A stretch of DNA of 64,000 bases from Anaerolineales bacterium UBA2200. GTDB taxonomy: Bacteria > Chloroflexota > Anaerolineae > UBA2200. The DNA lies in the NCBI GenBank assembly GCA_002327925.1, contig DCVA01000043.1:5948-69947 (forward strand), in the 5' to 3' direction. Under the pieces are notes generated by a model. It was not told the DNA's origin and searched no databases. It saw only the letters and a program-made list of their open reading frames with translations. The position numbers were made by a program, and so were the translations under genes. This document shows, in pieces, positions 19,857 to 27,458 of the stretch (position 1 is its first letter; each line of letters opens with the position of its first letter).

Positions 19857-21674
19857 CTATTGCACCGTGTGTTGCAGGCTGGCGACCACATCAGGCGTCT
19901 GGTCTGTGGCGTCGTGCTGGGCCATATAGCTCTTGACCAGCTCCGTATCGTCCCTGGCCAGGTCCATCGTCGAGCGGTAGGAGAGACTCTGGAAGAGCAC
20001 CTCGGCAGCCACCAGGAAGGGACCGCTGTGGCCCGTGACATTCACCCTGTAGGTCACCTGGTCAGACCCGCTATCGAAATTGGCGTCCGTGAACGCGCTG
20101 CCCATAACGGCAAAGTCCTTGCCGGCGGTGGCCTTGTCAAAGCCGGCGGGTAGTAGCCGGTTGTCCTTGACGTAGGACTGGCCGCGAAGCAGGGTGTAGG
20201 TCACCTGCTTCTCGCTATCGATCATCACCGACTCGTAGACCTGCACCTGGTCCTGGCCGGTGATCATGTCATAGTGTGCCTCGTAGGCGGAGGCGTCCTG
20301 GTCCGCGTCACAACCAGCGATACTGCCATCAGGCTGAGGCTTGCCCGATTCGAAGACAATGTTGCCTTTGCCGTCGGCCACGGTCAGATGGATCCAGGCT
20401 CTCCGGAGAGGGATTCCAGTGGGGAACTTGTGCCCAACCATCGAGTCGAGCTGCAGGCGGACGGAGAGCGCATCTCCTGCCAGGGCGGACTCTGCCACGG
20501 AGAGACTCAGTGTCCTATTGCCCAGCTGGTTCACTACTCTCTGCAGGGTTCCTTCCAGTTGCGCCTCAGAGCAGGTCAGCGAGAGTTGGTCGACATTATC
20601 CTGCAGCAACCGGATCATGAACGCATTGCCGCCGACAAAATGGTGCTCGGCAAAGGGCTGACGAGCGCTGATTCTGGGGGGCTTGGGCGAATTTGCGATC
20701 AGCACCTCGCCAAGTGCGTCAGGCATGTGGCACTTCTGGCAGACCATCCCCATGTCGCCATAGGCGCTGTGTTGCCATTCCAGGTAGGCTGTCTGCTCCG
20801 GGAACTCACCAGCCACGTTTCCTGCTGCGTCGAGGTAAGGGGTGTAGAGGGTGTGGCAGCTGGCGCACAGGCCGGCATCCAGCGTCTGCAGGCCAGGCGC
20901 TGGAGTGAAGCCGACGGAGCGGCGCATGGTGTCCTGGAACATATCCGGGAAGGGTCCGTAGGACATTCGGTCCGGCGGCTCGCTGGAGGTGTTGATCACA
21001 AAGTTGCCGCTGAATGACTCGGTTGTGCCCAGCCTGTCCTTCTCAATCTGATGGCATACGTTGCACGAGACGCCATCCATGGCCGCCTGGTGCAACTCAT
21101 TGTCCGCGCTCAAAAAGCCCGCATCAAGAATCGCTGTCGACGAGCCGCTCAAAGCAGCTTCCGTGAAGGCCATTGGCATGTGACACACGCTGCACTTGTC
21201 CTCGATCACCTGTTTGAGTGCAGGCGCGCGCTCCACTTCGGAGCTCACCTTGGCCAGATACACAGGGTCATGAGCCGCGTTGGCCATCATCACGGAGCGC
21301 CAGTGAACGTCGATGGAGACGTCGTTTCCTGCTGCGTCGGTCAGACGCGTATGGCAGATGCCGCAGGTGCCCGAACCGGTGAAATCAGCTCTCGTGAACA
21401 TGGTCAGCGGCTTGCCCTTGCTGCCCGCCTGAGTGGGGACGGCGGTGGGTGGCACGGCAGTGGGTGGCACCTGCGTGGGCGGGACGGCGGTGGCTGGCAC
21501 CTCAGTGGGAGGCGCCTCGGTAAGCGTGGGAGGCACCGCAGTTGGCCTCGGGGGCACAGCGGTCGCTGTGGGGGTGGGGCCCGAGCAGGACGCAATGAGA
21601 GCGGCGCCTGGCAGCACGACGAGGATCAACAGGCCTATCAGAAGGTAGGTCCGACTGAGCGATTGGGTCTTCAT
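19857..21674 (-). CDS. Pentaheme c-type cytochrome lipoprotein (cytochrome c554/c552-like multiheme domain plus a beta-rich C-terminus)
   Basis: Five CxxCH motifs: CGICH, CSVCH, CNVCH, CASCH and CQKCH. Lipobox LIASC. SD AGGAG before ATG 21674. Confidence 0.9.
   Translation of the reverse strand: MKTQSLSRTYLLIGLLILVVLPGAALIASCSGPTPTATAVPPRPTAVPPTLTEAPPTEVPATAVPPTQVPPTAVPPTAVPTQAGSKGKPLTMFTRADFTGSGTCGICHTRLTDAAGNDVSIDVHWRSVMMANAAHDPVYLAKVSSEVERAPALKQVIEDKCSVCHMPMAFTEAALSGSSTAILDAGFLSADNELHQAAMDGVSCNVCHQIEKDRLGTTESFSGNFVINTSSEPPDRMSYGPFPDMFQDTMRRSVGFTPAPGLQTLDAGLCASCHTLYTPYLDAAGNVAGEFPEQTAYLEWQHSAYGDMGMVCQKCHMPDALGEVLIANSPKPPRISARQPFAEHHFVGGNAFMIRLLQDNVDQLSLTCSEAQLEGTLQRVVNQLGNRTLSLSVAESALAGDALSVRLQLDSMVGHKFPTGIPLRRAWIHLTVADGKGNIVFESGKPQPDGSIAGCDADQDASAYEAHYDMITGQDQVQVYESVMIDSEKQVTYTLLRGQSYVKDNRLLPAGFDKATAGKDFAVMGSAFTDANFDSGSDQVTYRVNVTGHSGPFLVAAEVLFQSLSYRSTMDLARDDTELVKSYMAQHDATDQTPDVVASLQHTVQ
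21430..21580 (-). repeat. Degenerate 15-nt tandem repeat encoding a PTAVP-type Pro/Thr linker
   Basis: The translation PTAVPPTLTEAPPTEVPATAVPPTQVPPTAVPPTAVPT sits between the lipobox and the heme domain. Confidence 0.8.
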
Positions 21675-21762
21675 TGGCTCTCCTTCACCTCGGATGTGAG
21701 ATGACCACTCACGGCAATTATAGGACAGGTGGGCGGCGTTGGCAAGAGCCTGGTGCCATTCC

Positions 21763-22182
21763 TCAGCGGGCGCTGGATACCGCCTGCGCCACGGCCGCCG
21801 CATTGGGAACGCCCGTTTGTGCATAGACTTCGTGACCCTGGACGTTCAGTACCAGCGTGGTGGGTGTTGCGCGGATGCCGTATCGGCGCACGACGTCAAG
21901 GCCCGTTGCCGTTGCCGCGTTGATGCGAATGACGGCGGCCTGACCTTGCAGCTGACTTTCGATCCTGTCCACGACAGGCTTGGCGATGAGGCAGGACGGT
22001 CAGCCGTTGGAGAAGAAATAGACCACCGTCGGCTGTCCCGTGGCGATCAGTCGGTCAAAGTCCTCGGCTGATGCGAGTGGGGTGCCTTCGCTTCGAAGCA
22101 TCAGCCAGGCCAGCGGCAGCCCGATCACGATCAAAAGGGAGATCCAGTTCTCTCTGGCAAAGCGCAGCAATCTGTCAGCCAT
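21763..22182 (-). CDS. Membrane-anchored thioredoxin-like protein with in-frame TGA: putative selenoprotein (U-P-S-C)
   Basis: Track ORFs 22000-22206 and 21763-21972 are in one frame. Read through, it gives TVVYFFSNG-U-PSCLIAKPVVDRI...YGIRATPT, a UxxC plus cis-Pro motif. A CCTGTC-GTG-GACAGG hairpin lies 21 nt after the TGA. Confidence 0.85.
21964..21978 (-). promoter_or_regulatory. Putative bacterial SECIS hairpin of the Trx-like selenoprotein
   Basis: Perfect 6-bp stem with a GUG loop downstream of the in-frame UGA (22000-22002). Confidence 0.55.
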
Positions 22183-22253
22183 GAGTTCCAAGCATTCTCC
22201 TTTCACAGAAAACTACGTGATGACAAACACGAGCGAGTCGCCACGGCAACGGT

Positions 22254-23399
22254 CTACTCGCCGCCCAGCTGCTCGTCAATCTTGACCATCCAGTCGGCAA
22301 TGGGGATCTTCTGCGGGCAGAGCTCCTCGCACTTGTGGCACTGGATGCAGGCAGCTGCGCGCGTGTCCTCGCCGGGTCGACGCGGCTCATTGTAGCTCTT
22401 GCGTGCCTTCTCCATCTGGTTGTCCACGATGGCCCGGTTGTACAGGTCCAAATTGAAGGGGATCCACACCCCATTGGGGCAGGGCATGCAGTAGCGGCAG
22501 TCGGTACAGGGAATGGGGAAGAGACTGCGATACCTGGTCCGTGCCTCCTCGATCAACGCCAGGTCCTGTTTCGGCAGAGTACCTGGCCCCGAGTTGTCCG
22601 CACTGGCCAGGTTTTCTACTACCTGGGCCATGGTCGTCATTCCACTCAGGGCCAGGGACACTTCCGGCTGGTTCCAGACCCACTGCAGCGCCCAGTCAGC
22701 CTGTGAGCGTGACGTAGTTGCGCGTTCGAAGGCCTCCGCAATCTTGGCCGGAAGGTTAGCCAGTCTGCCTCCGCGTATAGGCTCCATCACGACCACGGGA
22801 ATGCCCCGCGACGAGGCGTACAACAAACCCTGGCGGCCAGCCTGGATGTCCTGATCGACATAGTTGTACTGAATCTGGCAGGGGCACCAGCCGGCATAGG
22901 CGTCGATGATCTCCTTGAAGACGTCGAATTTGTCGTGGAACGAGAATCCGAAATGACGGATCTTGCCCCGCGCCATGGCGCCCTCAGCCCAGCGCAATAT
23001 CCCCAGGTCCCGCATTTTGGGCCACTCGCGAGCGCTCAGGGCGTGAAGCAGGTAGAAGTCGACATGGTCCGTTTGCAGTCTCTGCAATTGTTCGTCCAGC
23101 AGGCGTTCCGGGTCCTCGGCCTTGTCGACCAGCCAGCACGGCAGCTTGGTCGTCAAGTGCACCCGGTCACGGTACCCGCCCTGCAGGGCACTGCCCAGCC
23201 ACTTCTCGCTGTTCCCGCCGTGGTATCCATAGGCCGTGTCAACATAGTTCACACCCTGATCGATGGCAAAGCGCAGGATGCGTGTGGCCTCCGGCTCATC
23301 GATGGCCGTCGAGTCGCTGCCGATGGTAGGAAGCCGCATGCAGCCAAATCCGAGCGCGGAAACCTGAATGTCGTATCTGCCGAATGGACGGTACTTCAT
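22254..23399 (-). CDS. Aldo/keto reductase with a C-terminal 4Fe-4S dicluster domain (COG1453-like)
   Basis: LGFGCMRLP, YVDTAYGYHGG.SE, QIQYNY and VMEPIRGGRL, plus CTDCRYCMPCP and CIQCHKCEELCP. Confidence 0.93.
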   Translation of the reverse strand: MKYRPFGRYDIQVSALGFGCMRLPTIGSDSTAIDEPEATRILRFAIDQGVNYVDTAYGYHGGNSEKWLGSALQGGYRDRVHLTTKLPCWLVDKAEDPERLLDEQLQRLQTDHVDFYLLHALSAREWPKMRDLGILRWAEGAMARGKIRHFGFSFHDKFDVFKEIIDAYAGWCPCQIQYNYVDQDIQAGRQGLLYASSRGIPVVVMEPIRGGRLANLPAKIAEAFERATTSRSQADWALQWVWNQPEVSLALSGMTTMAQVVENLASADNSGPGTLPKQDLALIEEARTRYRSLFPIPCTDCRYCMPCPNGVWIPFNLDLYNRAIVDNQMEKARKSYNEPRRPGEDTRAAACIQCHKCEELCPQKIPIADWMVKIDEQLGGE

Positions 23400-26150: not shown

Positions 26151-27458
26151 GTGCCAAGACGCCTGCTATGTGTTACGATCCTGCTGATTGTGCTTTCCCT
26201 GGCCGCCTGTTCGCAGAACACGGCGGCGCCCCCCACCGCAACGCGAGTCGGTCAGCCGACCGACACGCCCGTGCCGCCAACCGGCACACCCGGCGATGGT
26301 GAGGTGGAGATGGGATTCACCTCGGAGGGCTTTCCGTACAAAGGCAATGCGAATTCCCCGGTGACGCTCTGGGAGTTCTCAGAATTCCAGTGACCGTTTT
26401 GCGCCCGTCACGCCAACGAGACGGGCCCGCTTCTGTATGAAGCGTATGTCAAGACCGGCAAGGTAAAGATCGTCTTTGTGCAGTCGCCGCTGGAGTCGAT
26501 TCACCCGCAGGCACGTAAAGCGGGAGAAGCATCGCTCTGTGCTGCCCGGCAGGGCATCGAGTTCTTCTGGAGCATCCACGACCGGCTGTTTGCCGGCACG
26601 GGTGACTGGAGCGGCCTGGGAACCGCGACCGATGTCTTCAAGGGCTATGCATCAGAGCTGGGGCTGGATCTCGCCCGGTTCAGCGCTTGCCTGGATGCGG
26701 GCGAGACGACGGCTGAGCTGAACACCCAGATACAGTATGCCTACACCAACGGGGTGAGCGGAGTCCCCTACTTCCTGGTGAACGACTGGCCTGTCTCCGG
26801 GGCGCAGGCCTATAGCGTGTTCCAGAGCGCCATCGAGAAGGCACTGGCCGGCGAGCATCCACCGCCAACGCCCACACCCCTGCCCGAAGGCAAGAGCTGG
26901 CTCGACGTCAATCCGGACAAGCCCGGCTACACCTATGGCGGGGATGCGTACCGAGGTGAGGAAACGGCGCAAGTTGTGGTCTTCCAGTTCATCGACTTTG
27001 CCTCGGCCGACAACCGCACGGTTGTCGTGGAGACATGGCCAGAGCTGGAGAAGCAGTACCTGGAAAGCGGAAAGGTGCGCCTGGTAATCAAGCACCTGCC
27101 CCTTGCCAGTCAGCCCACGGCCGTGCTGGCCTCGGAGGTTGCTGAGTGCGCTGGCCAGCAGAATGCCTTCTGGCCGATGTATGGTCTGCTGTTCCAGAGT
27201 CAGAGCGAATGGAGTAGTCTGGAGGACGCGACGGCTGTCTTCAAGCGCTTTGCCTCAGAGCTCAAGCTGAACGACGCGGCCTTTGCCGCCTGTCTGCAGG
27301 ATGACGAAGCCAGAGCAAAGGTAGAGTCCGATATGGACATTGGCGTACAAAACGGCTTCCCTGCCGCACCCGTGTTCTTCATCTTCAAAGGCGACGAGGG
27401 TGGGTATGTGCAGACAGATCAACTGCGGACGGCAATCGACGAGTTCCTGACCGAGTAG
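26151..27458 (+). CDS. Two-domain DsbA/thioredoxin-fold lipoprotein with in-frame TGA: putative selenoprotein (U-P-F-C)
   Basis: Track ORFs 26151-26393 and 26478-27458 are in one frame. Read through, it gives WEFSEFQ-U-PFCARHANET...GKVKIVF. Lipobox LAAC, cis-Pro loop GVSGVP and SD GGAGG. Confidence 0.88.
26403..26426 (+). promoter_or_regulatory. Putative SECIS hairpin of the DsbA-like selenoprotein
   Basis: 7-bp stem GCCCGTC/GACGGGC beginning 9 nt after the UGA, with a small CG-CCAA-CG apical hairpin. Confidence 0.55.

Follow-up and report, generated by a model that had tools for sequence, protein, structure and literature searches.

Does the UGA codon that interrupts a thioredoxin-like reading frame of Anaerolineales bacterium UBA2200 end translation there, or is it read as selenocysteine (Sec)? 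The locus lies in a stretch of 64,000 nucleotides (nt), referred to below as the window (assembly GCA_002327925.1, contig DCVA01000043.1, positions 5,948 to 69,947); coordinates are those of the window unless another contig is named. An initial annotation, made from the letters of the window alone, had proposed a membrane-anchored thioredoxin selenoprotein with a UPSC active site directly upstream of a multiheme cytochrome gene, and gave no strand. The gene is carried by the minus strand. One minus-strand gene, running from 22182 to 21763, is likely (probability of about 0.88) to encode a membrane-anchored thioredoxin with a Sec residue in its active site. Thioredoxin-fold selenoproteins with a UxxC motif, and bacterial selenocysteine insertion sequence (SECIS) elements located within the open reading frame (ORF), are well established. 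The features discussed are listed in Table 1.

Reading frame and gene calls

Translation of the reverse complement of 21763-22206 gave VKGECLEL-MADRLLRFARENWISLLIVIGLPLAWLMLRSEGTPLASAEDFDRLIATGQPTVVYFFSNG-(TGA)-PSCLIAKPVVDRIESQLQGQAAVIRINAATATGLDVVRRYGIRATPTTLVLNVQGHEVYAQTGVPNAAAVAQAVSSAR-(TGA). The frame reads ...VVYFFSNG-TGA-PSC-LIAKPVVDRIE...RATPTTLVL...SSAR-TGA, with the internal TGA (22002-22000) at the first Cys position of the CxxC motif, as annotated at the outset (FFSNG-U-PSC). Beyond this codon the same frame continues as a normal thioredoxin sequence, and its translation includes the expected cis-Pro motif ATPT (P107, codon 21864-21862); the resolving Cys is encoded at 21993-21991. 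The probable start is the ATG at 22182, and the GTG at 22206 marks the upstream bound of the open frame.

Listing of ORFs under translation table 11 yielded two pieces, 22000..22206 and 21763..21972. In public gene calls on identical contigs the gene appears either as two products of 60 and 69 amino acids (aa) or as a 63-aa product together with a spurious antisense ORF; the expectation that gene callers would split it was borne out.

Conservation of the UGA codon

Stop codons were read through in a search for orthologs that covered 60 relatives from the same class. The 19 best orthologs, ranging from 57% down to 27% identity, contain exactly one TGA each, and the gene aligns with 19 orthologs from end to end. 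The TGA column is identical in 19/19 TGA-bearing orthologs, in the context SN[TGFY]-TGA-x-x-C-L..KP. Among the 20 strongest orthologs in these relatives Sec is found in 19, and one relative (L038) carries Cys at the TGA column (SPYCLAC). The invariant positions of the protein alignment are U/C61, C64, P69, V71, G94 and P107. Column entropies at codon positions 1/2/3 were 0.84/0.60/1.22 before the TGA and 1.12/0.87/1.42 after it, so that the order of variability is 2 < 1 < 3 on both sides.

An exhaustive profile search was made over 1.84 billion representatives. Full-length public Cys forms were recovered that share the N-terminal anchor and the motif (FYSNTCSICL..KP), for example FYSNTCSICLVSKP and FYTNTCTSCLLARP; the database proteins P0008, P0010, P0013 and P0018 have Cys at the UGA position. 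One Cys form is annotated both as 'thioredoxin family protein [Chloroflexota bacterium]' and as 'peroxiredoxin family protein [Anaerolineae bacterium]'. The same search returned orphan fragments of 75-78 aa that begin directly after the UxxC motif. These C-terminal fragments are split Sec forms, and it is mostly as C-terminal fragments that the family is held in protein databases; a word-indexed protein search gave two distant matches only, and a search for related loci with the single protein gave one distant locus, from Acidimicrobiaceae. Homologs with Cys or Sec at the position in question thus exist in both forms (19 TGA orthologs, and the Cys forms of L038 and the databases).

Some relatives also carry more divergent thioredoxin-like genes arranged as pairs in tandem, with one in-frame TGA in each gene (G036:C42:27155-27803 and G040:C33:12417-13089). 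The class may harbor several more Sec-thioredoxin subfamilies.

The hairpin downstream of the UGA

The stem-loop that had been placed 21 nt past the UGA, with a G-containing loop, was found at 21978-21964 and is conserved among the orthologs. It occupies positions +25 to +39 (counted from the U of UGA) in every ortholog and occurs in three forms, CCUGUC-GUG-GACAGG, CCCAUC-GUN-GAUGGG and CCCGCC-GUU-GACGGG. Pairing was present in 91% of cells as against 21-41% in slid controls, in which the 3' arm was shifted by 1-3 columns of the ungapped, codon-anchored alignment. Two pairs are fully compensated and broken in none of the sequences (C-G/U-A, 10:9; G-C/A-U, 11:8), and the observed covariation score was reached by no shuffle. 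One of the compensated pairs joins a silent change in the third position of a Pro codon to a non-synonymous substitution (Arg/Gly), a coupling for which protein constraint alone can hardly account. The loop opens with an invariant GU, which falls within the codon of the invariant Val71.

Protein family, membrane anchor and topology

The read-through protein scored 37.1 bits against the Pfam Thioredoxin model PF00085 (cut-off 23.5) and 28.5 bits against Thioredoxin_2 (cut-off 27). AlphaFold2, run on the 20-sequence alignment, returned a model with a predicted local distance difference test score (pLDDT) of 96.1, in which an N-terminal helix is followed by a standard thioredoxin fold (strand-helix-strand-helix-strand-strand-helix). 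In a Foldseek search of the PDB the best matches were classical thioredoxins (Trx m, an ancestral Trx and E. coli TrxA; TM-score 0.8-0.86 on the target), and thioredoxins were also best in a profile search of PDB sequences (E = 1e-20). ResA, CcmG and TlpA were absent from the best 60 PDB profile matches and from the best 50 Foldseek matches, and models from the TlpA side stayed below cut-off (Thioredoxin_8, 18.9 vs 27 bits; StoA, 19.7 vs 210). The profile and fold searches point to classical thioredoxins, and the TlpA/ResA/CcmG-like label first given to the protein is not supported. Judged by these profiles and by the predicted fold, the protein is a divergent membrane-anchored classical thioredoxin and not a TlpA-like one. 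The selenoprotein-specific NCBIfam models gave no match to it. The evidence supports the description of the locus as one gene whose product is membrane-anchored, has a thioredoxin fold and carries Sec as the first residue of UxxC.

The side of the membrane on which the domain lies was predicted from flanking charges. Over the 20-protein alignment, the N-side flank of the transmembrane (TM) helix nearest the domain holds 42 K/R and 20 D/E, and the 15 residues on its C-terminal side hold 21 K/R and 56 D/E. In a subfamily with two TM helices (L037-L039) an RRRARR-like loop lies between the helices. By the positive-inside rule, these flank charges and the loop therefore predict an N-in orientation, and the thioredoxin domain probably faces the outside of the cytoplasmic membrane. 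In the opposite arrangement the domain would be cytoplasmic, and the protein would belong to the ordinary TrxB/TrxA system as a membrane-tethered component that receives its electrons straight from thioredoxin reductase. This arrangement is suggested by recurrent neighbors of the gene in relatives: a TrxB-like flavoprotein adjoins it in four loci and a canonical thioredoxin in at least three. A glutaredoxin recurs as a neighbor in two loci. Proximity to trxB and trxA would also suit a relay from TrxB through TrxA and CcdA to an exported thioredoxin, and both the excess of K/R on the N-terminal flank (42 vs 21, with 56 D/E on the C-terminal flank) and the inter-helix loop of the two-TM subfamily place the domain outside; a cytoplasmic domain is accordingly regarded as unlikely.

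Selenocysteine machinery

The assembly to which the window belongs (G000) comprises 2.8 Mb in 54 contigs and is 88% complete. It contains an intact selA (554.8 bits) and a selD (367.6 bits) with an in-frame UGA at the catalytic G-U-xxK site. The latter gene lies outside the window, at G000:C13:130822-131754 on the minus strand, and reads ...MTRAAG-U-AAKRGP... Since selD is itself a selenoprotein gene, selenophosphate synthesis in this organism depends on Sec decoding. Among the 61 genomes searched, selB was above cut-off in 53 and tRNA-Sec in 50, a same-genus genome (G001) included. In G001 a single contig carries selB and selC, separated by 18 kb, and the tRNA was called SeC(TCA) by ARAGORN.

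A second candidate selenoprotein gene, for a DsbA-like protein, was found in the same window, 4.4 kb from the Sec-thioredoxin gene and on the opposite strand, and an active Sec trait is supported because of it. The protein contains two DsbA-like (Thioredoxin_4) domains, and its active site reads ...WEFSEFQ-U-PFCARH. In gene calls the start of this gene is placed at 26478, downstream of its UGA. At least seven relatives retain the TGA, and another (L155) has TGC instead; the hairpin that follows it is conserved, the Cys form included.

Alternative explanations for the UGA

Several results weigh against the reading of this gene as a functional selenoprotein gene, or against the way in which it is thought to work. 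The hairpin of the window itself has a stem of just 6 bp, and its predicted fold does not stand out from those of shuffled sequence (z = -0.39; 62% GC), so that its support is comparative; one pair is broken in the hairpin of the same-genus ortholog, and an Rfam search gave no SECIS family, only noise-level miRNA matches. The gene for the proposed electron donor, ccdA, does not lie near the Sec-thioredoxin gene, and no ccdA, resB/ccsB, ccsA or ccm was found within ±1.5 kb at 20 loci (the window's own and 19 others). Neither tRNA-Sec nor selB was found in the 88%-complete assembly. For tRNA-Sec, the search with RF01852, ARAGORN (40 tRNAs, 0 Sec) and BLAST with the same-genus tRNA-Sec were negative; the sole RF01852 match above cut-off (49 bits) is a tRNA-Leu(CAA) and was rejected. 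For selB, the best match to TIGR00475 is EF-Tu and was likewise set aside, the SelB winged-helix domain was not found (PF09107, E = 0.23), tblastn of the assembly with the C-terminal half of the G001 SelB gave no match, and selA has no adjacent selB. Attempts to bridge the gap discussed next failed, and in a metagenome scan with the G001 SelB no contig was obtained from the samples that bear the strain.

The region of G001 that holds selC and selB is nearly without counterpart in G000. Homology restarts right where contig C12 begins, at lexA, and all five public assemblies of the strain break at one point, 120-235 nt upstream of lexA (loci L063-L067; G000:C12:1-120), presumably at a repeat. 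It is at this lexA-side break that synteny with the selB/selC region of the same-genus genome would continue. Most likely, selB and the tRNA-Sec gene sit in the unassembled 12% of the genome, and this is the main caveat. Of the four components that had been named for a check of the genome, selA and a Sec-containing selD are thus present; searches of the assembly as it stands recovered neither selB nor tRNA-Sec.

If the UGA were a true stop, the locus would be a pseudogene or would encode two short peptides, either generally or through loss of selB and selC in this organism. The missing selB and tRNA-Sec and the two fragments given by gene callers fit that explanation. It is nevertheless very improbable. 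At identities as low as 27%, all 19 genomes keep the TGA in one column, and the sequence beyond it bears a coding signature. The second fragment is missing the opening strand and helix of the thioredoxin fold and could not fold by itself. In addition, selA is intact, Sec decoding is required for selD, and the assembly is 12% incomplete, the G001 selB/selC region without G000 counterpart ending where contig C12 begins. The possibility that the TGA is a TGC or TGT misread in sequencing or assembly has in its favor nothing beyond the prior that metagenome-assembled genomes contain single-base errors. The same TGA is repeated in three assemblies from other samples, namely two JGI metagenomes (3300001580, and 3300035312 with a single-nucleotide polymorphism elsewhere in the gene) and one SRA run (SRR942941), as well as in 18 other genomes, and the chance of an error is negligible. 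The initial annotation had named TGC or TGT in the reads as evidence against Sec; the independent assemblies agree on TGA. Reassignment of UGA throughout the genome was ruled out: TGA functions as a regular stop in this genome (62% GC), where it terminates 957 of 2053 long ORFs (47%) and also the Sec-thioredoxin gene itself. Pseudogene, error and global recoding are therefore rejected, because the UGA column is conserved, coding continues beyond it, the TGA is reproduced and TGA is otherwise a normal stop. Insertion of Sec at this codon is retained as the preferred reading.

Neighboring genes and the cytochrome

A cytochrome gene with five CxxCH motifs lies 3' of the Sec-thioredoxin gene on the same strand, as the initial annotation had noted. 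The protein has a Pro/Thr-rich linker after its lipobox and gave only a faint MtrC/OmcA-like match. The longest ORF listed for it, with a start at 21824, runs into the thioredoxin gene and is probably too long; from the ATG at 21674, which is preceded by the ribosome-binding site GAAGGAGAG, the gap to the thioredoxin stop is 88 nt. A promoter-like sequence in this gap matches the sigma-70 consensus at 11/12 positions (the scan gave 3 sites vs 0.8 expected), and its position suggests that the cytochrome may be transcribed separately, from its own promoter. Among the relatives, the same-genus genome L021 alone retains the block formed by the Fe-S aldo-keto reductase gene upstream, the Sec-thioredoxin gene and the cytochrome gene. 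No cytochrome, CcdA or Ccs neighbor was found at the remaining 18 loci, of which 17 have TGA and one is the Cys form of L038, so the adjacency to the multiheme cytochrome holds within the genus only.

In the same assembly ccdA is located at G000:C35:9243-9847, directly downstream of two Cys-type membrane-anchored thioredoxin paralogs (STMCRPC and STNCKPC). Over G000:C35:7999-9862, ccdA was observed to match as two pieces in different frames, with a TAA; a frameshift, an assembly error or a pseudogene may account for the break. A search of the assembly for ResB was negative.

It had further been suggested that the Sec-thioredoxin is a reductase of the ResA/CcmG/TlpA type dedicated to the apocytochrome CxxCH motifs of its pentaheme neighbor. 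The two genes are adjacent on one strand with a short gap, the arrangement is kept together with the upstream aldo-keto reductase/Fe-S gene in L021, the predicted outward, membrane-anchored topology resembles that of ResA and CcmG, and the missing ResB leaves cytochrome maturation incompletely accounted for. Set against this, none of the 18 other loci has a cytochrome neighbor and Ccs and CcdA genes are lacking nearby; sequence and fold are those of a classical thioredoxin; a near-consensus promoter separates the two genes; and the two Cys-type paralogs upstream of ccdA are the more obvious partners of CcdA. The adjacency of the genes stands, and a dedicated role in reducing the neighbor's CxxCH motifs is doubtful.

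Table 1. Position of the Sec-thioredoxin gene, its elements and other features of the window
Feature	Position	Strand	Details
Full selenoprotein gene	21763..22182	-	139 codons; ATG 22182-22180 to terminal TGA 21765-21763
Shine-Dalgarno-like sequence AAAGGAGA	22196..22203	-	13 nt 5' of the ATG; read from the sequence, putative function
N-terminal transmembrane anchor, residues 13-31, WISLLIVIGLPLAWLML..	22090..22146	-	Mean hydropathy 1.81; helix in the AlphaFold2 model
Thioredoxin-fold domain, residues ~38-139, including cis-Pro P107	21766..22071	-	Pfam, AlphaFold2 and Foldseek
UGA probably read as selenocysteine (residue 61)	22000..22002	-	Attacking-Cys position of the thioredoxin motif
Active-site motif U-P-S-C (U61, C64)	21991..22002	-	Both columns (C61(U), C64) invariant in the ortholog alignment
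SECIS-type hairpin	21964..21978	-	Stem CCUGUC 21978-21973 / GACAGG 21969-21964; loop GUG 21972-21970
Promoter-like TTGCCA-17-TATAAT, 11/12	21717..21745	-	Thioredoxin-cytochrome gap; match to the sigma-70 consensus TTGACA-17-TATAAT only
Pentaheme (5 x CxxCH) lipoprotein cytochrome	19857..21674	-	Downstream neighbor; lipobox LIASC
Aldo-keto reductase with C-terminal 4Fe-4S dicluster domain	22254-23399	-	Upstream neighbor
DsbA-like lipoprotein, candidate Sec-containing	26151-27458	+	UGA 26391-26393; lipobox LAAC
Hairpin of the DsbA-like gene	26403-26409 / 26420-26426	+	7 bp, GCCCGUC/GACGGGC; ~10 nt past the UGA

Proposed mechanism and relation to known systems

In the mechanism proposed, the UGA at 22002-22000 would be recoded as Sec and the hairpin at 21978-21964 would recruit SelB with Sec-tRNA(Sec), the invariant GU of its loop doubling as part of the Val71 codon. 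The product would be a 139-residue type-II protein with one N-terminal helix (N-in) and the thioredoxin domain on the outer face of the cytoplasmic membrane. The selenolate of U61 would attack a substrate disulfide, and the resulting selenenylsulfide would be resolved by Cys64. Re-reduction would probably take place via a CcdA-type membrane shuttle fed by cytoplasmic TrxA/TrxB. The protein is thus probably an exported Sec-dependent thiol-disulfide oxidoreductase acting as a CcdA-coupled reductase, for which the neighboring cytochrome is one weak substrate candidate.

Thioredoxin (PF00085, UxxC) is listed in a review as a selenoprotein family of prokaryotes with experimental verification (PMC13188914, Table 1), and Sec-thioredoxins have been reported from Treponema denticola, Geobacter, Anaeromyxobacter and Carboxydothermus (PMC1794560). 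The window protein has in common with them the thioredoxin fold, Sec as the first residue of UxxC, an in-ORF SECIS just downstream and the existence of Cys homologs. It differs in its N-terminal anchor and predicted extracytoplasmic domain; in its motif, which is W-U/C-G-P-C in the known proteins and SN[TG]-U-xx-C-L..KP in the window clade, with a score for the TrxA equivalog TIGR01068 of 46.4 bits against a cut-off of 96.8; and in that its clade is spread through one class (probably Anaerolineae) with Sec nearly fixed.

UxxC selenoproteins of the thiol:disulfide interchange, DsbA-like, DsbG-like and TlpA families are high-confidence predictions (PMC13188914, Table 1; PMC1794560, Tables 1-3). 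Those of the PF13098 thiol:disulfide interchange, DsbA-like and DsbG-like kinds are, like the window protein, exported oxidoreductases of the thioredoxin superfamily, whereas the window protein is without the DsbA helical insert or the DsbC/G dimerization domain and its best matches are classical thioredoxins. With ResA, CcmG (DsbE), TlpA and HCF164 it shares the single N-terminal anchor, the predicted outward UxxC/CxxC domain and a probable dependence on CcdA/DsbD; it lacks the extra elements of TlpA-like proteins and linkage to ccdA or resBC, and Sec replaces Cys. The same architecture of anchor and thioredoxin domain is found in Cys-type anchored thioredoxins such as P0018 (FFSNTCSICL..KP; named 'thioredoxin family protein [Chloroflexota bacterium]'), the actinobacterial-looking P0004 and the paralogs upstream of ccdA (HSTxCxPC), with Cys in place of Sec; the ccdA-linked paralogs on G000:C35 are only ~27% identical to the Sec-thioredoxin. 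The family is an unannotated clade within a known kind of selenoprotein, and no new mechanism is involved.

In the genus, one block encodes the Sec-thioredoxin, which is predicted to be exported, the DsbA-like lipoprotein with its candidate Sec residue, and the multiheme cytochrome, also a lipoprotein. An undescribed extracytoplasmic Sec pair, composed of a reductase and a DsbA-like oxidase or isomerase, that serves surface redox proteins and replaces a ResA-type system is a speculative extension that appears improbable at present. If true, such a Sec redox pair would serve the cell-surface redox proteins of Chloroflexota with a monoderm or atypical envelope.

For annotation, reading through the UGA restores a redox enzyme from two meaningless fragments, or from an antisense ORF. 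The gene adds to the selenoproteome of a poorly studied and mostly uncultured class and provides a clean comparative example of a SECIS element. The presence of selenium in two proteins predicted to be exported, the Sec-thioredoxin and the Sec-DsbA, would bear on the disulfide chemistry of these Chloroflexota and on the maturation of their surface redox proteins.

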